From the NCBI GenBank assembly GCA_963977015.1, contig CAXBMO010000005.1:96001-160000 (forward strand): a stretch of DNA of 64,000 nucleotides. Reading direction: 5' to 3'. Within the stretch, counting starts at the first letter, position 1. The number at the start of each line of letters is the position of its first letter. This document shows positions 50,313-64,000 of the stretch, piece by piece. The notes below the pieces were generated by a model. The model had not been told where the DNA came from. It did no database searches and saw nothing but the letters and a program-made list of their open reading frames with translations. The translations under genes were made by a program, and so were the position numbers. The stretch is from an uncultured bacterium. Lineage in GTDB: Bacteria > Verrucomicrobiota > Verrucomicrobiia > Verrucomicrobiales > DEV007.

Positions 50313-50826
50313 CCACCGGGGTTCCCCCCCCATGGTATCGAGCCCAACCACCAGACAGCCGCCCAACAAAAGGCCGCCCCAATTGGGTTTACCCCGATTG
50401 AGCGCTGCCCCCGCTAAAACGCCGTCAAATTCTCCTGCGAGCAGGAAGGGCAGAGTTCTTCGCTCGACCGGCACAAGGCCGAATGGCGCTAACTTTAGGC
50501 CGATCATCGGCGATTCAGCCGTGGTCTCCACAGGGGTTTATCCCCGTGGAACCAAGATCAATCACAGACCTGATTCCCACCACCGCCGCCCCAACCGGGT
50601 TTATCCCGGTTGAGCACTGATTCCACCGCTGAGAGCGTCGATTGGGAGCCCGGGCGCGTCCACACAGGATCAGCGCTCAACTGGCGCAAGGCCAGTTGGG
50701 GCGGATATTTGAAAGAGGAAATTCTGTGATTGATCGGGCCTCCCACCGGGATAAACCCGGGTGGCGGGCTTCCTCAAATACAGCTCATACGGCCATAAGT
50801 TAGCGCCATTCGGCACAAGACCAACC
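50313..50826. repeat. REP/BIME-like cluster of about 8 short palindromes forming a nested inverted repeat
   Basis: Units include CCACAGGGGTTTATCCCCGTGG (50528), CAACCGGGTTTATCCCGGTTG (50592), CAACTGGCGCAAGGCCAGTTG (50678) and CCACCGGGATAAACCCGGGTGG (50743). Flanks are mirrored around about 50645. Confidence 0.75.
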
Positions 50827-50895
50827 GGGGGGGATTAAAAGCCCAAAGATTTCCCGCTCGCGTTTCAAGGAAGAGAAACGCAGGCTGAAACCAAA

Positions 50896-51609
50896 ATGCA
50901 GCCAACGAACGAAACGAAGCCGCGCGAACGGTGGACGCATCTGCCGAAACTGGCCGGCCTGCTCGGCATGTTGGTTCCGTTGCTGACGGTGGTTTTGCAC
51001 CCGGGCCTGCGCGCAGAAATGGTTGAGGGAATCCGGATTCTTTCGTCCGGCAACTTGAACGCGCTGCACGTTTGGGCGGCAGAGTTTGGCGTCTGGGCTC
51101 CTCTCGCGACGAGCGCTCTCATGATCGCGCAAGCGTTGGCCGCACCGATTCCCGCAGTTCTCGTCACCTGGACCAATGCGCTTCTCTTCGGCTGGTTTCC
51201 CGGTGGTTGCCTGTCGATCGTCTCCGCGACCGTGGCCGCTTCGATTTGCTACGGAATAGGGCGCATCTTCGGTCTGCCGCTCGCGAATCGATTCGTGCGT
51301 CCGGAGACATTGCAGCAATGGGAAAAATCCATCGACCGCTACGGCGCCAACGCCATCCTTCTCGCTCGCCTCATCCCCTTCGTCCCGTTCGATCCGATCA
51401 GCTACATCGCGGGCATCGTCCGCATGCGCTTCTGGCCATTTTTCCTCATGACGCTCCTCGGCCAAATCCCGGCCGGGTTCGCCTATTCGTATCTCGGTGA
51501 GCAAGTCACGCAACCGGCGCGATTGGTCGTGACGTCGATCTGCGTGGTCGTAGCTCTGGTCGTGATCGGCCTGACCGCGCGACGGATTTTGCAAGGACGA
51601 GAACCTTGA
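50896..51609 (+). CDS. TVP38/TMEM64 (VTT/DedA-superfamily) membrane protein
   Basis: IAQALAAPIPA...NALLFGW, LLARLIPFVPFDPISYIAG, TLLGQIP. Confidence 0.88.
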   Translation: MQPTNETKPRERWTHLPKLAGLLGMLVPLLTVVLHPGLRAEMVEGIRILSSGNLNALHVWAAEFGVWAPLATSALMIAQALAAPIPAVLVTWTNALLFGWFPGGCLSIVSATVAASICYGIGRIFGLPLANRFVRPETLQQWEKSIDRYGANAILLARLIPFVPFDPISYIAGIVRMRFWPFFLMTLLGQIPAGFAYSYLGEQVTQPARLVVTSICVVVALVVIGLTARRILQGREP

Positions 51610-51622
51610 GCCACGAAAACTC

Positions 51623-52393
51623 TCAACCTTCAATCCGGCCCATCATCAGGTTGGAGACAAAACTCACTTCATCTTCCACCTCTCCCGGCGCTGCCGTCTC
51701 GGAAACGACAGAGTCGAGCGCGCGTTTGAATTGGTCGCGGAAAGCCAGCATCTTCGCCTTCACGTTGTTTTCGTTCGTTCCCAGTTCCAGCGCGATTTCG
51801 CTGTATTTCACATGATCGCCGTCTCCCGCGCGGCCGCTCAGGTTTTGGCAGAGCAACTGAAATTCCTTCAGCTTGTCTTTCTTGCTGTAGCGCTGTGCCA
51901 ACATCCCCATCACCTGATTGATCGTCGCCTCCGCCCACTCTTTTTCGAAGATCTTGTCCGGTGACTGTTCATCGATTGCCGTATTGGCAAAACGCCCCTC
52001 GGCCCACTCAAAATCCATCGATACATGGGTTTGCGCCTTCGGCCCGCCCCGTTTCTGGGCCGACTCCTTGCGAAATTCCTTCTTTCGGAACCGGTCCAGC
52101 GCCACTTTCAGAAACGTCCGCAACCGACCGCGTTTGGGGTCCCACTGTTTGATCTGCTCCCGTTCCAGCAACTCGTTGACAATGAACGCCTGCACCAAAT
52201 CCGAGGCGTCGTCGTGCGTCTCTCTTTGTGCCCGCATAAAGGCATACATCGGATACCAGTAACGCTGAAAAAACTCCTCCAACGCCTGCTGAGAATCCAT
52301 CGGGTTATCGGAAAGAACCCGCTGGTAAAGACTCAGACTGGTTTCCGGGAACGGATTCGGGCTGCCTGCCATCGTGCTTTCTGACTCGCTCAT
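51623..52393 (-). CDS. ECF-type RNA polymerase sigma factor of the Ser/Thr-kinase-associated type
   Basis: FPETSLSL...RYWYPMYAF...DASDLVQAF...DPKRGRLRTFL (sigma2); SAQKRGG linker; YSEIALELGTNENNVK (sigma4 HTH). Confidence 0.88.
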   Translation of the reverse strand: MSESESTMAGSPNPFPETSLSLYQRVLSDNPMDSQQALEEFFQRYWYPMYAFMRAQRETHDDASDLVQAFIVNELLEREQIKQWDPKRGRLRTFLKVALDRFRKKEFRKESAQKRGGPKAQTHVSMDFEWAEGRFANTAIDEQSPDKIFEKEWAEATINQVMGMLAQRYSKKDKLKEFQLLCQNLSGRAGDGDHVKYSEIALELGTNENNVKAKMLAFRDQFKRALDSVVSETAAPGEVEDEVSFVSNLMMGRIEG

Positions 52394-52456
52394 CGCTTCA
52401 AAATGGCTCCATCTCCGGGAATTCTCCAGTGTTGAAAAAGATTCTTGGGAAAAATC

Positions 52457-52485
52457 CTAACCTGCTGAGTCGATCCGGTAAGAAG
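52457..52485 (+). promoter_or_regulatory. Bipartite motif copy E (candidate ECF promoter) upstream of the kinase
   Basis: CTAAC-N13-CCGGTAAGAAG, preceded by an A-rich tract; matches copies A-D. Confidence 0.55.
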
Positions 52486-52610
52486 CGTGCAGGACACAAT
52501 CAACCTTACTTCAAAGTCAGAATCGCTGGATCTCGCCATTTCTTCATGAACACACACACCAAGAGTTCACCATTGACCGTCAACCGCCCAAGGCTAATCT
52601 GGTCTCTCCG

Positions 52611-55600
52611 ATGCTTGGGCAATCTACTCCCGTTTGCGAAAAGTGCGGCGCTCCGCTCTGGAACAATTCTCCCGTTCCTGTTTGCGGTCGGTGCCTGCTC
52701 GTGGCTGCCGTTGTCAAAACGCAACACTCTCGCCAGTCTCAAAGGGAAGGAGGCAGCATGAAGGATGGCGATGCGACCGAACCACATCCACGCTCCAAAA
52801 GTTCCTCCCTCGGAATCGAATTGCCGGATCGTGATGAAATCCAGAAGCTCTTTCCCGAGCTGGAGATTGGTGATCTGCTCGGCGCCGGAGGAATGGGCGC
52901 CGTTTTCAAAGCGCGGCAGCCTCGGCTCAAGCGGGATGTCGCGGTCAAGATCCTCTCCAAGCGATTGGCCAGCGATCCCGAGTTCATTGCCCGCTTCGAG
53001 CGCGAAGCCCAGGCCATGGCCAAGCTCGACCATCCCAACATCGTCACGATCTACGATTTCGGCGATCGCGAGGGCTATTACTACTTCATCATGGAATTTG
53101 TGGACGGCGGTGATCTCCATCAACTCATCGCAGCGAGCAAGCTTGACCCTGCCGCCGTGCTGGAACTGGTTCCGCAAATTTGTGGCGCAATTCAATTCGC
53201 CCACGAAGAAGGGATCACTCACCGTGACATCAAACCGGCCAACATCCTGCTCGACACCAAGGGCCGGGTGAAAATCGCGGATTTCGGTTTGGCCAAAATC
53301 CTCGCCGGAACCACCGACATCTCGTTGACGATGCCTGGCACCGCCATGGGAACGCCTTTTTACATGGCCCCGGAACAGTTGATCGACACGGAAAATGTCG
53401 ATCAGCGCGCCGATATCTATTCGCTCGGCGTGGTGCTCTATCAGATGTTCACCGGCGTGCTCCCCCAAGGCGATTTCGATCCCCCCTCAAAGACCTTGCC
53501 GGATATCGGTTCGTCCGTCGATAACGCGGTCATGCGAGCCTTGGCACAGGATCCGGCGCTCCGATTCGCCGAGGTGAAAGAGATGATGGAGGCGCTGGAA
53601 TTGGTGCGGGAAGAGCGCAAGAAGCGACGGTCGAAGAAGCACAAGTCGAGTCCTGGCAAAGATCCCAGTAAGCGCAAAAGCCTGATCCCATGGGTGGTTG
53701 GCACTCTGTTGGCAGTTTTCATTGTGGCTGCCATCAGGATCTGGATGTTTCCGAACAAGGCGGAGTCGCCAATGGCCGTTCATTCGTCTGCGGCGGATTT
53801 CAATCATATCGTTGCACCGTTGGTTCCGCAAACGCGGCCCGGCCCGCTTCGAGGGTTGTTGCTGACGTCCGAAGATGAAGTTCAGTCCATGGATCTTTCC
53901 GAGGTTTCGGAGTTCAACGACTTCATCCAGGTCCGGACAACGAATGCCGGTAATCCTCCAACCATTCTGGGTCTTCGCGCAAACGGGAAAGTGATCGGCA
54001 TCAATACGCCTGAAAACTGGGAAGACGGACTCGCGTTGCTCAATCAGGGACCTCCGATTCGATTTCTCGGGCGGAACGTCATGTCCATGCAACATCTCGT
54101 TGCGATCGACGAAACCGGGGTTGCTCGCCCCCTGCTGCCAAGCCACCCTGCCCATCAGGGATTTCCTGCAAATCCGGGTGCTGAAATTGCCGATGTGAGA
54201 ACCTTCACAGACCACAGCGCCATGTTGACGGTAGATGGGCGGGTGCTCTTGTGGGGGCCCGATTTTGTAGGTGAAAACAAGTCTTGGGATATGCCGCCGG
54301 ATACCTTTCGGACCGGTGTCGAGCAAATCCGGGTCACGGAAAACGCGATTTTTCTCCGGTATGCCAACGGCGACGTTAAAGGATGGGGAGAGACGGGCGA
54401 GATCTCATTGCCCCGGGCGATGCGTCACGACGTCAAAGCCATTTCCGTCAACGCTTTTTTGCTGAGGGCCTTGGATTCGGAGGGTCGAGTCTGGTCTACC
54501 TCGTCAGAATCGCCCAATCTCCTTGGAAATGGCGGAGAGTTCGTCGCCACTGGAGTTGCTGCTCTCAAGGATCAGCCCCTCGGGATGATCGTCTACAAGA
54601 AGGCGGATAGCCGCCGGTGGGAACTAACAAGTGGCAGTGGTCCAGAGCGATGGTACGGTCCGTTCGCCGCGGAGCTTGAAAGACTTGGTGACATCCCGGG
54701 GGAAGCCTTCAATGGTGGTGGACATACAACTTCCGAGACTCGCTTTCTGGTTTGGATCGAGCCGGCGGTGGCCGAGGCAAAATTAGAACCAGTTCTGCCC
54801 ACGATGAAGCCCGGCCGATTGCGGGCAATGGGGACGATCGGACTCGACGGACGGATCGTCCCCGCATCGGAGGGACTGCCGGATGTCGATGATATTGTCC
54901 AAATCCGGACGAGCAAAATCGGCGCAATGATCGCGTTGAGAGCCAATGGCAAGCTGGTCTCCAATCTTGAGCCTTTCTCGGAAATGATTGACGCTATCGC
55001 CAAATTCAATCGCGATCATACCGCCCGGCACCTGGGGTATATGTATTATTCCGCGCATGGGTTGGTAGCGATTGATGTCCTGGGTGTTCCCAGGCCTGTT
55101 TTTCCCGACCATCCCACCCATTCCAACTTTCCTCAGCCGGACGAACCCGTGGTTGATGTCATGGGCAGCAACTCAGGCGGAGTCATGCTCACAGAGAGTG
55201 GACGAGCGATTCCCTGGGGATTGTATTACACCCGGGAAGAGGATCGCTGGGATATGCCTCCCGATGACCTGTTGACGAATGTTGAAGAGGTCGCGCTCGG
55301 TAGCTACGCCTTTTTCGTCCGGAAGAAGAGCGGCGAGGTCGTCGGCTGGAATGGGAAACAGAAGATCCTTCCCCCGGAGGAAATGCGCAGCGGAATGCAA
55401 AAAATCGCCATGCATTTCGATAGCTTGGCTGCGATAGGACCTAAGGGCAGATTCTGGCGAACACACGGAGTTTTCCGCTACACGGAACTTTTCATCAAGG
55501 GTGAAATTGAGGCCACGAATATCACAAACAGCAATCATGGAGTGGGCCTTTTGCGAACCGGCACGGGAATCTGGCAACCCACTTTCGATGCAGACCGTCC

Positions 55601-56687
55601 GCTCATGTCTCCCTTGTTGGAAAAGGTCGCCACGCTTGAGGACTACCCGGAAGATGCGTTTGTTATGGGAGGAGACGATGGCTCTCAATCGCGGTTTCTC
55701 TTTTGGATCGAGCCGAAAACGGCGGAAGCAGCCACTCCACAGATCGACCTCCCGCCGGCCCTGGCCGCGATGAAACAGCACGGCGGCGCGCTCAGCGTTT
55801 GGAAGAGTCCCGGATGGGGCGACAAGCCTTACGACATCTCGCCGGCGGAAGGGATCGGTGATTTTCACGCATTGCTCGCGGTCAGTCATTCAGGCTGGGT
55901 CGCGGCTCGGCACCGTGGCCCCTCGGTTTCGTCGCTGCCTTGGTTTCATGATCTTGACGGCCTCGATTGGGCGAGCATGGAGAGTCCGACTTATGGCGGA
56001 ACACGGGACGGAACTGTCCTGGTGTCTCGTGGAGATGGAATTACCGGATTCCAAGCGGCACGCGAGGAGCTGACCGATCTGGTTGAAGCTGGACATTGGA
56101 TCTTGCGCTCGTCGACGGGAGAAATACGGCTCGTGGTCCCCGACCTCGTCACTCAGGCGCCCGGCTGGAAAACCATGCAACGCAAATTGAAAACCCTGTA
56201 TGGCGTCCGTGCGGTTTCCAATCAGGGAACTCGGAATGGAGGGGTGATCCTTTCGGATGGATCGCCATTGTGCTGGCTCTATCGAGAAGAGGAACCCTTT
56301 GTCGAACCTCCGGAAGTGGCACGCGATCTGGTCGAACTTCATGCCTGCGCGGGCGGATGGGTAGCGTTGCGCGAGGACGGACGAGTGATCGCTTGGAACT
56401 ATCACGGGCAAACGAACAGATCCCATCACCTGACACCTCCCGGTGACCTTCCGCCTGTTACGACTTTGCGTAGCAATAATGATCTGGTCGCCGCGCAAAC
56501 GGCAGATGGAAGTTGGCGAGCCTGGGGCGGCGAGCCCACCAATCCAGAGGGGCTGGATGACACGGAAGCGATTCTCCAATTTCTCAACCAAGAAATGGGG
56601 CTAGCAGTCGATTTGGGATTCTGTAACCCGGGCACTGGCGGGCGCGTGGTGATTTGGATTGAGCCGACGGGGCTTACACCTAAATAG
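52611..56687 (+). CDS. Membrane Ser/Thr protein kinase (Hanks type) with an N-terminal Zn-ribbon and three 317-aa extracytoplasmic repeats
   Basis: CEKC...CGRC; GAGGMGAV, VAVK, FERE, HRDIKPAN, DFG and GTPFYMAPE all intact; TM WVVGTLLAVFIVAAI; repeats end in WIEP at 54753, 55704 and 56655. Confidence 0.92.
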   Translation: MLGQSTPVCEKCGAPLWNNSPVPVCGRCLLVAAVVKTQHSRQSQREGGSMKDGDATEPHPRSKSSSLGIELPDRDEIQKLFPELEIGDLLGAGGMGAVFKARQPRLKRDVAVKILSKRLASDPEFIARFEREAQAMAKLDHPNIVTIYDFGDREGYYYFIMEFVDGGDLHQLIAASKLDPAAVLELVPQICGAIQFAHEEGITHRDIKPANILLDTKGRVKIADFGLAKILAGTTDISLTMPGTAMGTPFYMAPEQLIDTENVDQRADIYSLGVVLYQMFTGVLPQGDFDPPSKTLPDIGSSVDNAVMRALAQDPALRFAEVKEMMEALELVREERKKRRSKKHKSSPGKDPSKRKSLIPWVVGTLLAVFIVAAIRIWMFPNKAESPMAVHSSAADFNHIVAPLVPQTRPGPLRGLLLTSEDEVQSMDLSEVSEFNDFIQVRTTNAGNPPTILGLRANGKVIGINTPENWEDGLALLNQGPPIRFLGRNVMSMQHLVAIDETGVARPLLPSHPAHQGFPANPGAEIADVRTFTDHSAMLTVDGRVLLWGPDFVGENKSWDMPPDTFRTGVEQIRVTENAIFLRYANGDVKGWGETGEISLPRAMRHDVKAISVNAFLLRALDSEGRVWSTSSESPNLLGNGGEFVATGVAALKDQPLGMIVYKKADSRRWELTSGSGPERWYGPFAAELERLGDIPGEAFNGGGHTTSETRFLVWIEPAVAEAKLEPVLPTMKPGRLRAMGTIGLDGRIVPASEGLPDVDDIVQIRTSKIGAMIALRANGKLVSNLEPFSEMIDAIAKFNRDHTARHLGYMYYSAHGLVAIDVLGVPRPVFPDHPTHSNFPQPDEPVVDVMGSNSGGVMLTESGRAIPWGLYYTREEDRWDMPPDDLLTNVEEVALGSYAFFVRKKSGEVVGWNGKQKILPPEEMRSGMQKIAMHFDSLAAIGPKGRFWRTHGVFRYTELFIKGEIEATNITNSNHGVGLLRTGTGIWQPTFDADRPLMSPLLEKVATLEDYPEDAFVMGGDDGSQSRFLFWIEPKTAEAATPQIDLPPALAAMKQHGGALSVWKSPGWGDKPYDISPAEGIGDFHALLAVSHSGWVAARHRGPSVSSLPWFHDLDGLDWASMESPTYGGTRDGTVLVSRGDGITGFQAAREELTDLVEAGHWILRSSTGEIRLVVPDLVTQAPGWKTMQRKLKTLYGVRAVSNQGTRNGGVILSDGSPLCWLYREEEPFVEPPEVARDLVELHACAGGWVALREDGRVIAWNYHGQTNRSHHLTPPGDLPPVTTLRSNNDLVAAQTADGSWRAWGGEPTNPEGLDDTEAILQFLNQEMGLAVDLGFCNPGTGGRVVIWIEPTGLTPK

Positions 56688-56832
56688 AGCCCGTCCCTTC
56701 TATATTGCGCTTCAATGTTAGCGCCTCTTCTATGTTGACTCGTCGTGCTTCACTCACCGCCGATCGGGTTCGTGGGACTGAGGTGGGAAATTCTTGACCG
56801 CACCATCTCCAAGCGTTTATCCATGAAGTGGA

Positions 56833-57573
56833 ATGGCAGACATCTTTCTCAGCTACAAAGGGACGGACTACGAAAAGGTCCGGGAAATCATCCAATTACT
56901 GGGCTCCCAACAGAACTGGAGCATCTGGTGGGACCGGGACATTGAGAAAGGGGAATTGTGGAGTGCTCGCATTCGTAAGGAACTTCGCGACGCCAAGTGC
57001 GTCGTGGTCGCCTGGAGCATTCGGTCCATCGATCCCATAAGCGGTAAGTGGGTTCTCGCCGAGGCAGACTATGGATTCAACAAGAACCGGCTCATTGGAG
57101 TCCGAATTGAACCGGTCGGCATCCCAGTTCCCTTTAATCAGATCCAATCCATCGACCTATTTGGGGACAAGGCCGCAGGTCGACGGGCTCTGATAAAAGC
57201 TGTTGGCGAGAAGCTGGCGAAGCGCTCGCCGGGAAAACAGAAGAAGGGCCAACTGAGATGGAAGGAACTCGTCCTCGAATGCAAGGCACTGGGCGTAGGA
57301 TTCAGCATCACCAAAAACACCTTGCGCGGTCGCCAAAGCCTTCTGATCGGTCGAGACAAAAGTTGTGACCTATGGGTGCCCTACGACGCGGTTTCTCGCG
57401 AGCACGCCCGAATCACGTTCGACAAGTACAAGGGCCCGTGCATCATTGATCTCGGATCGGCAAATGGCACCTATCTCGATCGAGGCAAGGTTGGCAAATC
57501 CCGACGACCATTGTTGAGAGCCCGACATCTGGAACTCGGGACCCTGACATTCACAGTAGAAGTTATCAACTGA
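56833..57573 (+). CDS. TIR domain + FHA domain protein
   Basis: TIR: DIFLSY...WWDRDIEKG...CVVVAWS...WVLAEA (putative catalytic Glu). FHA: LIGRDKSCD...VSREHARI...DLGSANGTY (G-R, S-x-x-H and N-G conserved). Confidence 0.85.
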   Translation: MADIFLSYKGTDYEKVREIIQLLGSQQNWSIWWDRDIEKGELWSARIRKELRDAKCVVVAWSIRSIDPISGKWVLAEADYGFNKNRLIGVRIEPVGIPVPFNQIQSIDLFGDKAAGRRALIKAVGEKLAKRSPGKQKKGQLRWKELVLECKALGVGFSITKNTLRGRQSLLIGRDKSCDLWVPYDAVSREHARITFDKYKGPCIIDLGSANGTYLDRGKVGKSRRPLLRARHLELGTLTFTVEVIN

Positions 57574-57673
57574 GCACTCGAAGACGGTTACGCTTTCGGA
57601 CTGCCTACGCTCGCCCTGCCTCTTGCTCGATTTCCATTGCCACTTCACCCTGATTCGCCTCTTAGCTTTCTGC

Positions 57674-57945
57674 ATCATGGGAAACGAACAAATTCCATCA
57701 CCTGACACCTCCCGGTGACCTGCCGCCTGTTTCGTCTCTGGGTAGCAATAGTGATCTGGTCGCCGCGCAAACCGCAGATGGAACCTGGCGAGCCCTCCTC
57801 CAAATCCGAGGAACCAGATGACACGGAAGCGATTATCCAATTTCTCAATCACGAAATGGATCCAGCAGTCGATTTGGGATTCTGTAACCCGGGCACCGGT
57901 GGGCACGTGGTGGTTTGGATCGAGCCGGCAGCTGTTGGGGAGTAG
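57674..57945 (+). pseudogene. Orphan diverged copy of the kinase 3' end (about the last 90 codons), frameshifted
   Basis: Aligns to 56401-56667 (e.g. CCATCACCTGACACCTCCCGGTGACC; GCAGTCGATTTGGGATTCTGTAACCCGGGCAC). Has an apparent deletion between two GGCGAGCC copies and its own stop at 57943-57945. Confidence 0.8.
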
Positions 57946-58011
57946 TTCTGACAAGGTGTTGGCGCGGCTTTAGACGGGAAAGTCCGGCTTGGAAAAAGAA
58001 ATCGAGAAAAT

Positions 58012-58051
58012 TTCTAATTCTCACGCCTCGGACCGGAAAGCAGGGAGTGAA
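58012..58051 (+). promoter_or_regulatory. Bipartite motif copy A (candidate ECF promoter)
   Basis: TTCTAAT-N14-CCGGAAAGCAGGGAGTGAA; ATG 58092 lies 59 nt after the start of CCGG. Confidence 0.65.
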
Positions 58052-58091
58052 ACCAATCCATCTCAATCTTCACACCCAATAAACCCAAAAA

Positions 58092-58490
58092 ATGAAAACG
58101 ACCAAATCGACCTTCACCGCTCTCATCATGGCCAGTTCGACCTTGCTCTGCCAATTCCTCAGTGCCCAGACAAGTGCGGATTATTTCAATCGGGGCAATG
58201 AAAAGGGAAGGCTTGGGGATTTTGAGGGAGCGATCTCGGACTTCACGCGAGCGATCCAACTCAATCCGAAGGCCCCTTACGCCTACCACAATCGGGGAGT
58301 GGCCAAGAAAGACTTTGGGGACGACAAGGGGGCAATCTCGGACTACTCGCGAGCAATCGAGCTCGACCCCAAGGATGCCAAAGCCTACTACTACCGGGGA
58401 AACGCCAAAACGAGCATTGGGGACACTCTGGGAGGAATGTTAGACTTCAACCAAGCGATCGCCCTAGCCCCGAAGATTGCGGGAGGTTGA
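58092..58490 (+). CDS. Secreted tetratricopeptide-repeat protein (3 TPRs)
   Basis: Signal peptide ...LSA-QTSA; YFNRG...AIQLNPK, AYHNRG...AIELDPK, AYYYRG...AIALAPK. Confidence 0.85.
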   Translation: MKTTKSTFTALIMASSTLLCQFLSAQTSADYFNRGNEKGRLGDFEGAISDFTRAIQLNPKAPYAYHNRGVAKKDFGDDKGAISDYSRAIELDPKDAKAYYYRGNAKTSIGDTLGGMLDFNQAIALAPKIAGG

Positions 58491-58622
58491 GAGGAACGGT
58501 TTCGAGCTTTGCACGATCGGTTGAAGGCGGGTTCTGGGGACGATCATGTAGTGGCCCCTGTGTGGCGAATTCCCCCGCGTTTGGGCGAGAAAACCTGGCT
58601 TGGGAAATAAATAGGAAGAAAT

Positions 58623-58662
58623 TTCTAACCTTCCCAACCCGAACCGGAAAGCAGGAGGTGAA
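58623..58662 (+). promoter_or_regulatory. Bipartite motif copy B (candidate ECF promoter)
   Basis: TTCTAAC-N14-CCGGAAAGCAGGAGGTGAA; ATG 58697 lies 53 nt after the start of CCGG. Confidence 0.65.
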
Positions 58663-58696
58663 CCCTATTTCAATCCTTCAACCTACTACCTGAACA

Positions 58697-59248
58697 ATGA
58701 ATCTGTTCGCTTTAATCGCAAACTCTGGAGGCTTTTTCTCCACCGTTGGTTCCATTCTCTTGATTGGCGCAGTTGTCATCGGGATGTGGTTCGCCTTCTT
58801 CGCCTCCGCCGAAGCCGGAGAACGGCTCGAACAACACCTGAACGGCACCCCTTCCGCGAAGGCGCTGAATCTGGTCGTCTACTTTTTCCTGCCCTGGCTC
58901 CTCGCGGCGACGTCGGTTTTACTTCTGTTCCAAATTAGCGATTGGATCCCCAAGGAACCCGACTCGTCCTTTCTTCAAAAGCTGAACTGGGCGTTGGCCA
59001 TAGCCAGCACGATTGGCTGGGCGTACGCCGCCATCGGCTTGGTAAAGTGGGATGTCTGCGGATGGGGAATGGCTCTCTTGCTCTATCCCGGCATGATCTT
59101 CGTTCCCGTCATCACCTTCAGCAACCTGCCGGAGGGATGGCAATTTCTGGCGCTGCCGATTCACACGACGCTCATCTTCGTGATCGGCGCCATCGGCTAC
59201 AACTCGAAAGCAAACCAGGAAATGCGTATCGCGATGAGCCTAGGGTAG
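58697..59248 (+). CDS. Hypothetical multi-pass membrane protein
   Basis: 183 aa with about 5 hydrophobic helices; follows motif B. Confidence 0.7.
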   Translation: MNLFALIANSGGFFSTVGSILLIGAVVIGMWFAFFASAEAGERLEQHLNGTPSAKALNLVVYFFLPWLLAATSVLLLFQISDWIPKEPDSSFLQKLNWALAIASTIGWAYAAIGLVKWDVCGWGMALLLYPGMIFVPVITFSNLPEGWQFLALPIHTTLIFVIGAIGYNSKANQEMRIAMSLG

Positions 59249-59283
59249 GAACTCCCAGCCTTCCAATTCCAACGAAAAATATC

Positions 59284-59712
59284 ATGATAAATGACCTCAC
59301 CTCCATCCTCACCGACTATTTCACCGTAGACACCATCCTGTCCTTCGCCATCCTCTTCCTCCCCGCTTTCATTGCTTGGTCTGTGATTGCCTGGTTCGAG
59401 CAACGCTCTTTTATCTTTGGCCGTTCCGAGGGTTTTCCTTGGTCACAGATCGCCTTCTCTGCGGTAGCAACGGCCGTGTTTATCGGAGGCCCCACTTTCT
59501 TTGGCTCCGTAATCCTCACACACGCTTGGAACGACGATTGGCGAGTGCATGGTTGGCAGTTTTCGTTTCTCCTCCTCGCAATCGGAATTACAGCCTACAT
59601 TTTTACCGTCCGTGGGAGCGAACCGCTCATTCTGACCGCACTCCCCTTGGGGTTATATCTTCTGCTGGTTTTCACAGCAACCTCCTTCTGGATCTCATCG
59701 GCTTTACGATAA
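59284..59712 (+). CDS. Hypothetical multi-pass membrane protein
   Basis: ATG 59284 (MINDLTS), about 4 hydrophobic helices; 35 nt after the previous gene. Confidence 0.65.
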   Translation: MINDLTSILTDYFTVDTILSFAILFLPAFIAWSVIAWFEQRSFIFGRSEGFPWSQIAFSAVATAVFIGGPTFFGSVILTHAWNDDWRVHGWQFSFLLLAIGITAYIFTVRGSEPLILTALPLGLYLLLVFTATSFWISSALR

Positions 59713-59811
59713 CTGCCAGGAAAAATCCGCGAAATTTCAGCCTTATCGTGCCAGCCCTTTCTCGGCGTTCGGTTCAGCTGATTCCCTTTCGCCAAAAAAC
59801 GAATCGCAATA

Positions 59812-59850
59812 TTCTAACCTTCCCGCCCCAGACCGGAAAGAAGGTGAGAA
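59812..59850 (+). promoter_or_regulatory. Bipartite motif copy C (candidate ECF promoter)
   Basis: TTCTAAC-N14-CCGGAAAGAAGGTGAGAA; ATG at 59875 or 59884 follows. Confidence 0.65.
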
Positions 59851-59883
59851 CCGATTAGTCTTCACACCAAGCTAATGATCCAA

Positions 59884-60549
59884 ATGAAAACCAAATACAC
59901 GATCCTTATTACGTTCACCTTCACCTTCGCCGCCTTAATCGCCCCGTTTGCCAACGCCCAGACATCTGCGAGGGAATACCAAAATCGCGGAGTGGAAAAA
60001 ACCAGGAATGGCGACCTTCGGGGGGCAATTGGGGATCTCGATCGAGCCATCCAAATCGATCCAAAACATGCGGACGCGTATGTCAATCGGGGCATAATCA
60101 AAAGTATTCTTGAAGACTACAAGGGAGCAATCTCGGACTACGAACACGCCTTGAGGATTGACCCGAATCTTGCCGAACCGGTCTACAACAATCGAGGAAA
60201 TGCCAGGAGGAAACTTGGAGATAACCAGGGAGCGATCGTGGATCTCAATCGAGTGCTTAACATCAACCCAAAACACGCCAGCGCATACCTAAATCGAGGT
60301 ATTGCGAGGCACTCCATGGGCGACAACGAGGGTGCCTACGCGGATTTCAGCCGCGCGATCCAGATCAATCCAAAGCTTGTGGACGCAACTTACAATCGAG
60401 CCATTCTCAGATACAATTCAGGTGACTACGAAGGCGCATTGATTGACGCCTCCAGGGTCATCGAGATTGCTCCAAATCATTCAAACGCACAGAACGTTCG
60501 CAAATTCGCCCGGGAAAAGATGAAAAGACAAACTCTCTTGGATCAATAG
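59884..60549 (+). CDS. Secreted tetratricopeptide-repeat protein (5 TPRs), paralog of 58092..58490
   Basis: Signal peptide ...ANA-QTSA; repeats YxNRG...A(I/L)xIxP. Alternative start at 59875. Confidence 0.85.
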   Translation: MKTKYTILITFTFTFAALIAPFANAQTSAREYQNRGVEKTRNGDLRGAIGDLDRAIQIDPKHADAYVNRGIIKSILEDYKGAISDYEHALRIDPNLAEPVYNNRGNARRKLGDNQGAIVDLNRVLNINPKHASAYLNRGIARHSMGDNEGAYADFSRAIQINPKLVDATYNRAILRYNSGDYEGALIDASRVIEIAPNHSNAQNVRKFAREKMKRQTLLDQ

Positions 60550-60737
60550 AACAGCCAACAACGGACATCCGGAAATCCTTATTGTTTCATAATCAGTAGC
60601 CATCCGGTTTTGTCAATCTCGCTGCGAAGCCCGTCTGGGCGCGAAACGGTCTGGATGTCCACATCGGTCGCCGTATTCCGCCCACCATACGAAGCAAAGC
60701 TGGTCTGACCAATATTCCCAAAGAAACGAAATCGTTT

Positions 60738-60777
60738 TTCTACCCCTGGCAGGCGATTTCGGAAAGCAGGGAGTGAA
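60738..60777 (+). promoter_or_regulatory. Bipartite motif copy D (candidate ECF promoter) without an immediately following ORF
   Basis: TTCTACC-N14-TCGGAAAGCAGGGAGTGAA; 3' half identical to copy A. Confidence 0.55.
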
Positions 60778-60968
60778 GGCAATCGATTTGCCTGAAACCG
60801 AAGATACAAGGACGGCGCGAGGACTTCCCAACTTCACCACCTTTCGCGCCCGAATCCTCTTCCACTTCGGTGGGCTCTATCATTATCCCGCATCCTGAAT
60901 CTCACAACAAATCCTCAAGCGCCAATTTGATTTTTGCCGGATTTCCGATTCATTCGGGCTCCCAATTT

Positions 60969-63900
60969 ATGAATATTACCAGATCGTCGGGTTTTCGGCT
61001 TATTATCCTCTGTTTTTCTGCCGTTGTCGGTTCTGCTTTTTTGATCAATGCGCAGACTCCCGAAGCGCCAAAATCAAAACCGCTCAAAGCGTTGCTCGTT
61101 GCCGGGGGGTGCTGTCATGACTACGCCGGCCAACACGAAGTTCTTTTCAAAGGAATTCAGGAACGTGCCAATGTGCAGGTCGACGTCTGGTGGACCGATG
61201 ACAAATCAGTCAACCCGCCACTGCCACTTTATGACAATCCTGATTGGGCAAAAGGCTATGATGTGATCATTCACGACGAATGTGCCGCCGGAAATCGCGA
61301 CCTGAAAGTTCTGGATAACATTCTGGAAGCGCACAAAACGATTCCATCGATTCACCTCCACTGCGCGATGCACAGCTTTCGCGGAAAAACCGACAAGTGG
61401 TTCAAACATCTCGGAATTCAGTCTTCAAGCCACGGGCCTCAGGAGCCGATTGACATCGAGTTCATCGACAAAAAGCATCCCATTGTTGAGACTCTGGAGG
61501 ATTGGACAACGATTAATGAGGAGCTCTACAACAATGTGAATGTTTTTGATGCGCAGCCCCTCGCGATGGGCACGCAGAAATACACCAGAAAAGGTGAGGC
61601 AAAGGAAGACGCGGCGATCGTTGTTTGGGTGAACGAAAAGCAGGGTGCGCGGAGCTTTTCAACCACGCTGGGCCACAACACGGAAACGGTTCAGGACGGG
61701 CGTTATCTGGATCTGGTGACTCGCGGATTGCTCTGGTCGATGGACCAATTGAACGCAGATTATCTGGGGAAAGCCTTCACCGGTGAGAACAAGGTTACGT
61801 TTCTGCCGAAAGTCGACGCCCCAAAACCGGAGCCGAAAGCGGCCATGGGAGCTGCGCCGAAAGACGCCACCCTGGCGAAAGTCACCGCGAGCACCGAGGA
61901 AACCGGAAAGAACAATTTTGCCTGGCGCGCTATTGATGGCGACAAAAATACCCGCTGGTGTGCCGGAAACGGGAACAAACCGCAGTGGCTTCAATTGGAA
62001 TTTGAGAAGCAGCAAACGCTCTCCGGCGCAAAGATTGCCTGGGAAAGCGGTGGCACGGCCTACCAATACAAAATCGAAGGTTCCGCAGACGGAAAATCAT
62101 GGAACGTGCTGACGGACGCTGCTGACAACAAAACAAACGGTGACTCTGAAAGCACGTTCTCTGCAAAAGCGGTTCGTTTTGTAAAAGTCACCTGCACCGG
62201 CACAACCAATCCGGGCAACTGGGCCAGCATCCGGGAATTCACCTTGAAAGGCGAAGGCATCAAATCGCTCTACCCGAAGCTTGACGAAAAACAGAAAGAG
62301 ACTGCGATAAAGGCTGAGAAAGCTGAAAGTGATCCTTATGCGAAAGCGGGAAACATTCCGCCGAAAATCGTAGCGCTGACTGAGAAAGAGGAAAAGGACA
62401 TCCTCAGCAACGTCAAAGTTCCGGAAGGTTTCGACGTTTCAGTTTTCTCGGATTGGCGCAGTGCAAATTATCCTGTTTATGTCGCAGCCGCCCCGAACGG
62501 CGACCTTTATGTTTCCAGTGACGGCAATGGCTCGCTGGGCCGGAATGCGGGTCGTGGTCGCGTTCTTCGTCTGCGTGACACCGATCATGACGGAACCGCT
62601 GACGAGGTCACTGAATTTGTCAAAGACGTCGATTCTCCACGCGGATTGATCTGGGATCAGGACCGGCTTTACCTGCTGCATCCGCCGCACATTTCAGTTT
62701 ATTTTGATAAAGACGGCGACGGTGTCGCCGAAGATTCCAAGCGTCTTATTGAAGGCATTGCTTTCGGATTTGCAGATCGTCCGGCGGATCACACCACCAA
62801 CGGACTTGATATGGGAATTGATGGCTGGATTTACATCGCGGGCGGTGATTTCGGTTTCATGAAGGCAAAAGGAACTGATGGCACCGAACTGCAGCATCGC
62901 GGCGGTGGCGTGATTCGTTTCCGCCCCGACGGCTCCGGTTTGGAAATATTCGCAACCGGAACCCGGAACATCCTCGGAACTCCGATCAGCCCACTGCTCG
63001 ACATTTTCGCCCGCGACAACACCAACGACGGTGGCGGCTGGGACGTGCGGTTTCATCATTTCACCGGTCTGGAAGACCATGGTTACCCCCGCCTTTACAA
63101 AAATTTCGGTGAAGAACACATCCAGCCGCTCGCAGATTACGGTGGCGGGTCGGGATGTGGTTCCGTTTACATTTCAGAACCCGGTTTCCCGGCAGCCTGG
63201 AACAACGCGCCGTTCACTTGCGACTGGGGAACCGGTGCTCTGTGGCAACACTCCGTTCAGCGAAAAGGCGCCACCTTTGAAGAAACGAAAGCTCCTGAGC
63301 CTTTCATTAAAATGACCCGCCCCACCGACGCGGATGTCGACGGAATGAGCGCCGTTTATCAGGCAAGCTGGCGTGGGCCGGCGACGTTCAAGTGGGCCGG
63401 GCCGGAGGCCGGTTACATTGTGAAAGTGACGCCGAAGGATTTTAAACCCGAGCCCCTTCCCGATTTCAAAAAGATGAGCAATGCGGAACTCGTAGCGGCA
63501 CTGGATTCACCAAGCCGGATCCGGACAATGGCGGCACAGCGCGCACTGCTACGACGGGACCTTCAAGAGGAAACCACAGAAGGCCTCCTCGCTCTGGCTC
63601 AGAACCCCGAAAAGCCGCTCGAAGCCCGCGTCGCCGCGGTCTATGCGATTGCCCTGTCTGAAGAAAGTGCCGCTGCTCTCAGCGCCCTCATCGAAATCGC
63701 AAAAACAGACGTGGCCATTGCCCCTTTCGCGACCCGCGCACTGGGTGATTTGAAATTCGCCAATGGAGATATTCCAAAAGCGGCTCAGGATCTTGTTGCC
63801 GGCGGATTCTCATCCGGCGACCCGCGGACCGCGACGGAGGCAATCATTTCTGCGGCCCGCCTGGGGATGAGTTCTGCAGCCGACGGAATCGCAAACCTGC

Positions 63901-64000
63901 TCGGCAGTGATGACCCGCAAATCAGCCACGTCGCATTTCGCGCGCTTGCAAAACTCGGCGCCAGCGAAGCCGCCCTCGCAAAGCTCGATTCTGACACCCA
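60969..64000 (+). CDS. Large secreted PVC-type protein: ThuA-like domain + discoidin (F5/8C) + sorbosone-dehydrogenase-like beta-propeller + HEAT repeats (partial)
   Basis: Missing from the ORF track because it has no stop in the window. Hand translation at spot-checked positions: MNITRSS...signal, LLVAGGCCHDY (ThuA-like), AWRAIDGDKNTRWCA (discoidin), ANYPVYVAAAPNGDLYVSSDGNGSLG (propeller), and helical HEAT-like repeats near 64000, all in the same frame. Confidence 0.8.
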   Translation, partial: MNITRSSGFRLIILCFSAVVGSAFLINAQTPEAPKSKPLKALLVAGGCCHDYAGQHEVLFKGIQERANVQVDVWWTDDKSVNPPLPLYDNPDWAKGYDVIIHDECAAGNRDLKVLDNILEAHKTIPSIHLHCAMHSFRGKTDKWFKHLGIQSSSHGPQEPIDIEFIDKKHPIVETLEDWTTINEELYNNVNVFDAQPLAMGTQKYTRKGEAKEDAAIVVWVNEKQGARSFSTTLGHNTETVQDGRYLDLVTRGLLWSMDQLNADYLGKAFTGENKVTFLPKVDAPKPEPKAAMGAAPKDATLAKVTASTEETGKNNFAWRAIDGDKNTRWCAGNGNKPQWLQLEFEKQQTLSGAKIAWESGGTAYQYKIEGSADGKSWNVLTDAADNKTNGDSESTFSAKAVRFVKVTCTGTTNPGNWASIREFTLKGEGIKSLYPKLDEKQKETAIKAEKAESDPYAKAGNIPPKIVALTEKEEKDILSNVKVPEGFDVSVFSDWRSANYPVYVAAAPNGDLYVSSDGNGSLGRNAGRGRVLRLRDTDHDGTADEVTEFVKDVDSPRGLIWDQDRLYLLHPPHISVYFDKDGDGVAEDSKRLIEGIAFGFADRPADHTTNGLDMGIDGWIYIAGGDFGFMKAKGTDGTELQHRGGGVIRFRPDGSGLEIFATGTRNILGTPISPLLDIFARDNTNDGGGWDVRFHHFTGLEDHGYPRLYKNFGEEHIQPLADYGGGSGCGSVYISEPGFPAAWNNAPFTCDWGTGALWQHSVQRKGATFEETKAPEPFIKMTRPTDADVDGMSAVYQASWRGPATFKWAGPEAGYIVKVTPKDFKPEPLPDFKKMSNAELVAALDSPSRIRTMAAQRALLRRDLQEETTEGLLALAQNPEKPLEARVAAVYAIALSEESAAALSALIEIAKTDVAIAPFATRALGDLKFANGDIPKAAQDLVAGGFSSGDPRTATEAIISAARLGMSSAADGIANLLGSDDPQISHVAFRALAKLGASEAALAKLDSDT

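Follow-up and report, generated by a model that had tools for sequence, protein, structure and literature searches.

A five-copy two-block motif as a candidate promoter set of a kinase-linked ECF-like sigma factor in an uncultured member of the Verrucomicrobiales

What is the role of a two-block DNA motif that occurs in five copies, all on one strand, beside the genes for an extracytoplasmic function (ECF)-like sigma factor and a receptor serine/threonine (Ser/Thr) kinase, and which protein would read it? The question is raised by a 64,000-nucleotide (nt) stretch of DNA from an uncultured member of the Verrucomicrobiales, hereafter the window (contig CAXBMO010000005.1, contig positions 96001-160000; host genome 6,885,723 bases, or 6.9 Mb, 56% G+C), in which the motif has the overall form TTCTAAC-N13/14-CCGG(A/T)AAG, with its five copies on the + strand. 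The concept of an ECF sigma factor with a local regulon is ordinary. We propose, with a probability of about 0.72, that the five copies are the sigma-dependent promoter set of the adjacent kinase-linked ECF-like sigma factor, with feedback on the kinase, and we infer that the motif is a promoter, the neighbouring sigma factor its reader and the kinase the activator of that sigma factor. The elements on which the argument turns are given here by window position; the copies are cited below as 52457, 58014, 58625, 59814 and 60740.

51623-52393, - strand: divergent ECF-like sigma factor of 256 amino acids (aa; P0001), monocistronic, recognized from profiles and paralogs
52454-52486, + strand: kinase copy of the motif, TCCTAAC-N13-CCGGTAAGAAGC, 124 nt before the kinase ATG
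52611-56687, + strand: receptor Ser/Thr kinase of 1358 aa (Pkinase, 3.3e-53; weak RCC1-like matches)
58011-58044, + strand: copy before the first TPR gene, TTTCTAAT-N14-CCGGAAAGCAGG (pattern, alignment and leave-one-out scan)
58622-58655, + strand: copy before a membrane-gene pair, TTTCTAAC-N14-CCGGAAAGCAGG (pattern, alignment and leave-one-out scan)
59811-59844, + strand: copy before the second TPR gene, ATTCTAAC-N14-CCGGAAAGAAGG (pattern, alignment and leave-one-out scan)
60737-60770, + strand: degenerate copy, TTTCTACC-N14-TCGGAAAGCAGG (self-comparison and leave-one-out scan)

All five copies reported in an earlier note on this DNA were recovered. In the window, the pattern CTAAY-N13/14-CCGGWAAG matches four times, always on the + strand (52457, 58014, 58625 and 59814), where 0.01 matches are expected from shuffled sequence and none of 100 shuffles reached four. 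The copy at 60740 reads CTACC-N14-TCGGAAAGCAGG, is degenerate in both blocks, as had been described, and has 18 consecutive identical bases (CGGAAAGCAGGGAGTGAA) in common with the copy at 58014. In the alignment of the copies, an A-rich tract is followed by TTTCTAAC, a spacer of 13 or 14 bases, CCGG(A/T)AAG(C/A)AGG and a weaker GAGTGAA or GGTGAAC, which agrees with the placement of the copies behind A-rich tracts in the earlier note. The variability of the spacers is also real: averaged over pairs of the four downstream copies, identity reaches 0.81 for the -35 block and 0.92 for the -10 block, but only 0.46 within the spacer and 0.37-0.44 within the flanks; the spacers of the copies at 58625 and 59814 are similar to each other. 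The distance from AAC to CGG is 15-16 bases throughout. A third, weaker element, RGTGAA(C), is found 9-12 nt past the -10 block (58045-58052, 58656-58663 and 60771-60778), near the expected transcription start, and reads AGGAGGTGA in the copy at 58625.

Every copy (5/5) lies in an intergenic gap, on the coding strand and ahead of a + strand gene. Three copies had been placed 42-59 nt before a start codon; their position ahead of the two TPR genes and the membrane-gene pair holds, but the distances from the end of CCGGAAAG to the ATG are 51 nt (ATG 58092), 45 nt (58697) and 34 nt (59875). The kinase copy stands ahead of the kinase gene, as had been noted, with ATG 52611 lying 124 nt past its 12-nt block, and the fifth copy lies ~198 nt before ATG 60969. 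Genes of four unrelated kinds (kinase, TPR, membrane and ThuA-type) thus have the motif ahead of them, which argues against plain hitch-hiking on gene duplication. The copies are not identical in build: the kinase copy has a 13-base spacer and CCGGTAAG, whereas the four downstream copies have a 14-base spacer, CCGGAAAG and an extended CAGG. From comparison with the relatives described below, the kinase copy has the spacing and the -10 block typical of the family, and the four downstream copies are a local variant.

The earlier note had proposed scanning this genome and those of relatives with a matrix built from the copies, and had considered that the motif might be the end of a dispersed repeat. 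Over both strands of the whole genome, CTAAC-N13-15-CCGG[AT]AAG has three matches, all of them in this locus. When each copy was scored over the same range with a matrix built from the other four, the copies at 58014, 58625 and 59814 (three of the five) each scored above every other genome position, and the copy at 60740 was equalled or exceeded by one. Away from the locus there is a single strong matrix match, CTAAT-N13-CCGGAAAGCTGG at C42:8810 (score 28.6; next best 21.3). The dispersed-repeat explanation was thus rejected, as the strict form is confined to the locus and the matrix finds one other strong match in the genome. That match (also L107:2810) falls at the 5' end of the open reading frame of a DOT1-like methyltransferase. 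An in-frame internal ATG follows 17 nt later, and a canonical ECF sigma gene is 2.7 kb away; the match may be a sixth site or a chance occurrence.

The nature of the neighbouring sigma factor had to be judged from divergent sequence. The protein has no Pfam match at 1e-3, with weak signals of region 4 (0.013) and region 2 (0.22); it matches TIGR02937 at 5e-8 with 32.7 bits, under the cut-off of 42.9, over positions 2-163 of 165. Six paralogs are present in the genome (E 1e-22 to 1e-46), and three of the six, paralogs at E 1e-30 among them, exceed the TIGR02937 cut-off. Because the TIGR02937 match runs from end to end and paralogs pass the cut-off, we accept the product of 51623-52393 as a putative divergent ECF-type sigma factor. 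An acidic DDASD is kept in its region 2.2, where the protein and its orthologs have DDASD, EDASD or EAED, and its linker contains a conserved THVS. The genome holds 64 sigma-like matches, but the next one on this contig is ~126 kb away, so that this gene is the only candidate nearby. No anti-sigma gene lies beside it, the downstream open reading frame being a convergent VTT/DedA gene. An open reading frame at 50800-51633 on the - strand, overlapping the 3' end of the sigma gene, was considered as an anti-sigma gene and rejected as an artefact: its translation is of low complexity, and the opposite strand (50896-51609, +) encodes the VTT/DedA membrane protein. At 50340-50790, ahead of the VTT/DedA gene, several short palindromes matching CC(R)GGGTTTAYCCC(S)GK are repeated, which by eye look like repetitive extragenic palindromic (REP)-type sequences.

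A parallel arrangement exists elsewhere in the same genome. The closest paralog of the sigma factor (C28:15322-16092, 37% identical) has five copies of a sister motif, TTTGTAAC-N12-YCGGWAAGGAA, at 3.6-10.2 kb of its contig, within 12 kb of the sigma gene; one further copy in the genome lies on C12. The copies score 27.3-36.2, against 22.8 for the next-best genome position, and those on C28 precede genes for small exported proteins and a methyltransferase-kinase operon. The variants are TCTAAC with CCGGAAAG in the window and TGTAAC with CGGTAAGGAA or YCGGTAAG on C28, so each of two predicted sister sigma genes has a sister motif clustered alongside. The RGTGAA(C) element is common to the window cluster, the C28 cluster (L001 sites) and orthologous sites (L023:4465). 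The C28 cluster also contains five head-to-tail 7-nt units (L001:3509-3545) ~50 nt upstream of the motif copy at 3596. Among seven fetched loci with orthologs of the C28 paralog, three have retained a single GTAAC-N12/13-CCGGTAAGGAA next to the sigma gene, and two of the three sites are near-identical kin; no match at a score of 14 or more was found in the loci of G001 (same genus, ortholog 70% identical), G068 and G084. The other paralog loci of the host genome (C16, C4, C30, C6 and C19) have no clear motif nearby, either by pattern or by eye.

Orthologs of the window's sigma factor (E 1e-50 or better) are sparse, with seven loci in five of 133 other genomes of the family and none in three genomes of the same genus; a divergent Ser/Thr kinase gene is present in all three orthologous loci that are annotated. 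In two of the seven loci (G005 and G017), the sigma-kinase gap keeps a T-rich stretch with xCACC-N12/13-CCGGTAAT, and two more gaps (G085:C371 and G047:C22) bear a loose likeness by eye. The strict pattern of the window gave no meaningful match in the orthologous loci; matches appeared once TAAC in the -35 block was loosened to [CA]ACC. The relaxed form, [CA]ACC-N12/13-CCGGTAA, occurs 17 times per 13.77 million positions of the host genome, so that ~0.002 matches are expected in the ~1.5 kb examined.

More distant relatives were gathered with an alignment query, since a single-protein query had given 126 pattern matches, none of which was confirmed. The alignment query found at least 588 sigma relatives, and 80 loci at 31-38% identity were kept, from Verrucomicrobiota, Planctomycetota, Acidobacteriota and others; the family is much expanded in places, with up to 27 matches per genome (E 1e-20) among the relatives searched. 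The matrix used on these loci was trained solely on ten sites of the host genome, and sigma-proximal windows were defined beforehand: on the strand of the sigma gene they took in 240 nt upstream and 280 nt downstream of it, and on the opposite strand 400 nt upstream. At a score of 16 or more, all four matches were proximal (71,204 positions) and none lay elsewhere (888,044 positions); at 12 or more, there were 20 proximal matches against 27 elsewhere, a 9.2-fold excess. At the three top-scoring sites, L074:3858, L085:3844 and L098:3731, TGTAAC-N13-CCGGTAAG lies 10-11 nt before the ATG of a zinc-ribbon kinase, so the predicted kinase transcript would be leaderless or nearly so. L098 and L085 carry a second copy upstream of the sigma gene, where L074 has TGTAAC-N13-ACGTTAAC, and in ~12 further loci TGTAAC with a CCGGTA-like block is found in the sigma-kinase gap. 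De novo counting of dyads on 16 loci gave output too noisy for use. The kinase catalytic loop HRDIKPGN is encoded by CACC-N12-CCGGTAAT (L009:5048, also L016:791), which mimics the promoter pattern and so yields false positives in such scans. On these comparisons, we assign the motif class to this sigma family, with the kinase gene as the most conserved predicted target.

The shape of the motif suits an ECF promoter. The SigW promoter of Bacillus subtilis, TGAAAC-N16-CGTA, is of the canonical type, and the motif resembles such promoters in its AAC-containing -35 block, its CG-initiated -10 block and its rigid spacing, but differs in that the -10 block is CGG(T/A)AA rather than CGT and the distance from AAC to CG is 15-16. 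A separate, GAAAG-type -10 element, as envisaged in the earlier note, is not borne out: the block is better read as CGG(T/A)AA, which, given the site TGTAAC-N13-ACGTTAAC upstream of a relative's sigma gene, is a one-base variant of the CGT type. The -35 block is TCTAAC here and TGTAAC in the wider family; groups with a TGTAAC -35 block include ECF120, ECF231 and ECF235 (accessible text of PMC7826278). The ECF promoter reading of the earlier note is thus supported by the restriction of the motif to the locus, the paralog cluster on C28, the orthologous gaps and the scan of 80 loci, and the sigma factor encoded at 51623-52393 is its most likely reader by proximity and by co-occurrence at the level of the family.

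Several observations weigh against this assignment. The stretch upstream of the sigma gene lacks the motif, so that the usual cue of self-regulation is absent, and the expectation that the ECF sigma factor drives its own locus stands for the partner kinase and the neighbours but not for the sigma gene. The ECF identity of the protein depends on sub-threshold profile matches and on its kinship with paralogs above the cut-off; when solved structures were searched with a profile from a six-sequence alignment of the sigma factor, no matches were obtained, the AlphaFold model of the protein is of low confidence (mean predicted local distance difference test score, pLDDT, 61.5), and a Foldseek search of that model against the PDB found no match at 1e-3, although the weak top rows include ECF sigma chains and the best local one is a sigma region 4 domain (3hug_A, template modelling (TM) score 0.75 for the target). 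In the leave-one-out scan, the kinase copy was equalled or exceeded by ten other genome positions. For 52300-61000, the listed sequencing runs that contain parts of the range are five DNA metagenomes, and none is an RNA run. The four downstream copies, with CCGGAAAG and 14-base spacers, deviate from the kinase copy and the family consensus (CCGGTAAG, 13 bases), and they could in principle have a reader other than the neighbouring sigma factor. Among relatives, three of the seven orthologous sigma-kinase gaps have no site, and 77 of the 80 distant loci have no match at a score of 16. In the five genomes with orthologs, HMACC-N12/13-CCGGTAA occurs about as often as a reversed-pattern control and forms no multi-copy cluster; because the loosened pattern is not enriched there, the multi-copy cluster is peculiar to the host genome.

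One alternative is that the copies are real ECF-type promoters read by another sigma factor of the same expanded family, whether the C28 paralog or any of the remaining five, or that there is cross-talk among them, with the neighbouring sigma factor controlling the kinase copy only or none. The genome offers seven family members among its 64 sigma-like matches, the motif families are very close (TCTAAC versus TGTAAC; CCGGAAAG versus YCGGTAAG), and the kinase copy is set apart from the four downstream ones by its spacing and by a single base of the -10 block. However, each motif variant clusters by its own sigma gene and not by the other, and the C28 cluster mixes CGGTAAG and CGGAAAG at one spacing, so this -10 base is tolerated within one set; we consider control by another sigma factor unlikely. 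That the two blocks are instead half-sites of a conventional DNA-binding activator or repressor is quite improbable. Bipartite sites of fixed spacing would also suit a dimeric regulator, and the likeness of the copies at 58014 and 58625 reaches ~45 nt further upstream, but the two blocks do not repeat each other in direct or inverted form, every copy faces its gene in the same way, and the TGTAAC or TCTAAC -35 block with 15-16 bases from AAC to CG suits ECF promoters. Moreover, the sigma gene is the sole regulator gene conserved beside the sites in relatives, and a scan of 51500-61500 for sigma-70 promoters and terminators, in which the counts equalled those of shuffles, found no + strand sigma-70-like site in the relevant gaps.

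The locus bears signs of duplication: its TPR genes are paralogous to each other, the copies at 58014 and 58625 have a stretch of 89 nt in common at 71% identity, and the 3' end of the kinase gene has been duplicated recently (85-90% identity). The copies might therefore be functionless relics of local duplication or the ends of small repeats, which we nevertheless consider very improbable, because conservation is concentrated in two short blocks amid a decayed spacer and decayed flanks, unrelated genes carry the motif, the motif is not dispersed in the genome, and both blocks are found again next to members of the sigma family in other phyla. There is only a slim chance that the conserved stretch is a transcribed RNA leader, either riboswitch-like or a protein-binding 5' untranslated region. 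Conservation does continue past the -10 block (GGAGTGAA or GGTGAAC), and AGGAGGTGA in one copy resembles a ribosome-binding sequence; yet a search of 51500-61500 against Rfam returned nothing at E up to 1, variation in the spacer is not compensated, and four of the five copies fold no better than shuffles (z-scores of the five: +1.40, -0.07, -0.07, -2.33 and +0.75), with predicted structures that differ from one another.

With the neighbouring ECF-like sigma factor retained as the preferred reader, the genes around and behind the copies become the candidate regulon. Those downstream of the kinase gene are:

56833-57573, + strand: TIR-FHA fusion protein (TIR_2, 2.2e-17; FHA, 2.4e-14)
58092-58490, + strand: small exported TPR protein of 132 aa (TPR_1, 2e-20; signal peptide by eye)
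58697-59248 and 59284-59712, + strand: two multi-pass membrane proteins of 183 and 142 aa (membrane character from sequence)
59875-60549, + strand: second exported TPR protein of 224 aa (TPR_1, 1.2e-38)
60969-64000, + strand, continuing past the window end: large exported protein with ThuA, F5/8 type C, DUF7133 and HEAT domains (domain search)

An N-terminal zinc ribbon (CxxC...CxxC), a kinase domain, a single membrane helix and three outer repeats of ~317 aa can be recognized in the kinase sequence; every repeat closes in WIEP, and the repeats correspond to a 951-nt internal repeat of the gene. The TIR-FHA gene starts 146 nt past the kinase gene without a motif copy of its own, and the two are possibly co-transcribed. 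Its product, encoded directly downstream of a receptor kinase, joins a phosphothreonine-binding FHA domain to a TIR domain, and may be a phospho-dependent output of the same kinase; PADLOC returned only generic kinase-domain matches and no match for the TIR-FHA protein. Just past this gene, at 57679-57927, the last ~250 bases of the kinase gene (56407-56666) are repeated at 85-90% identity, leaving a remnant open reading frame of 76 aa (57715-57945), so that the TIR-FHA gene is flanked by one complete repeat unit and one remnant. The two TPR proteins are paralogs with 45% protein identity. The 183-aa and 142-aa membrane proteins are mutually unrelated and match no Pfam or NCBIfam family, and their genes probably form one transcription unit. 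For the large ThuA/DUF7133 protein, ATG 60969 is the likely start, with a signal peptide following it.

Under the proposed mechanism, the receptor kinase would detect an extracytoplasmic signal through its three repeat modules and phosphorylate the sigma factor, which would then guide RNA polymerase to five units: the kinase, the two exported TPR proteins, the membrane-protein pair and the large exported ThuA/DUF7133 protein. In the predicted promoters, a -35 block TTCTAAC and a -10 block CGG(A/T)AAG would be preceded by an A-rich tract and followed, at the predicted start, by a weakly conserved RGTGAA. With the kinase among the targets, the circuit would include positive feedback, and the TIR-FHA gene would possibly be carried along.

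Activation of the sigma factor by the kinase is proposed by analogy with EcfP/PknT of Vibrio parahaemolyticus and EcfK/PknS of Xanthomonas citri, kinase-activated ECF sigma factors of group ECF43, which are described in the accessible text of PMC8999054 and PMC13147305. As in ECF43, so far as that text goes, a sigma factor without an anti-sigma gene lies beside a Hanks-type kinase with one membrane pass and has local target genes, which are predicted ones here. In contrast, ECF43 is proteobacterial and has lost the acidic DAED of region 2.2, which is S/T-rich instead (same text, PMC8999054 and PMC13147305), whereas DDASD is kept here, the sigma family belongs to Verrucomicrobiota, Planctomycetota and Acidobacteriota, and the kinase has an N-terminal zinc ribbon. 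According to the accessible text of Casas-Pastor et al. 2021 (PMC7826278), the kinase-linked groups are ECF43, ECF59-62, ECF217, ECF267 and ECF283, those of planctomycetes being ECF59, ECF61, ECF62 and ECF217, and the ECF62 kinase combines a zinc finger at the N terminus with a single membrane helix and beta-propeller (WD) repeats. The kinase here and those of its relatives fit that description. In the same text, the predicted promoter motifs of ECF61, ECF62 and ECF217 are not conserved; unlike in those groups, a two-block motif exists here, mainly ahead of the kinase gene and not of the sigma gene. The strings CGGTAA and CCGG were not found in the accessible part of supplementary file 1 of PMC7826278. 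A literature search on the promoters of kinase-linked ECF sigma factors in Verrucomicrobiota or Planctomycetota returned nothing specific.

Planctomycetes and Verrucomicrobia have very many kinase-linked ECF sigma factors, none of which, to our knowledge, has a known target. The locus, its paralog and its relatives together provide a concrete promoter consensus and a candidate regulon of five units. On this basis we tentatively suggest, at slightly less than even odds, that TGTAAC-N13/14-CCGGTAAG, represented here by TCTAAC and CCGGAAAG, is the long-missing target promoter of a large zinc-ribbon-kinase-linked ECF family (at least 588 relatives in Verrucomicrobiota, Planctomycetota and Acidobacteriota), with the kinase gene and not the sigma gene as the conserved target. 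As the conserved site lies before the kinase gene, earlier promoter predictions may have missed it by searching upstream of the sigma gene. If this is true, the core circuit would be a sigma-driven amplifier of the sigma factor's own activating kinase, often with a nearly leaderless transcript, and genomes like that of the host would have enlarged the regulon by placing the promoter before unrelated genes for exported proteins.

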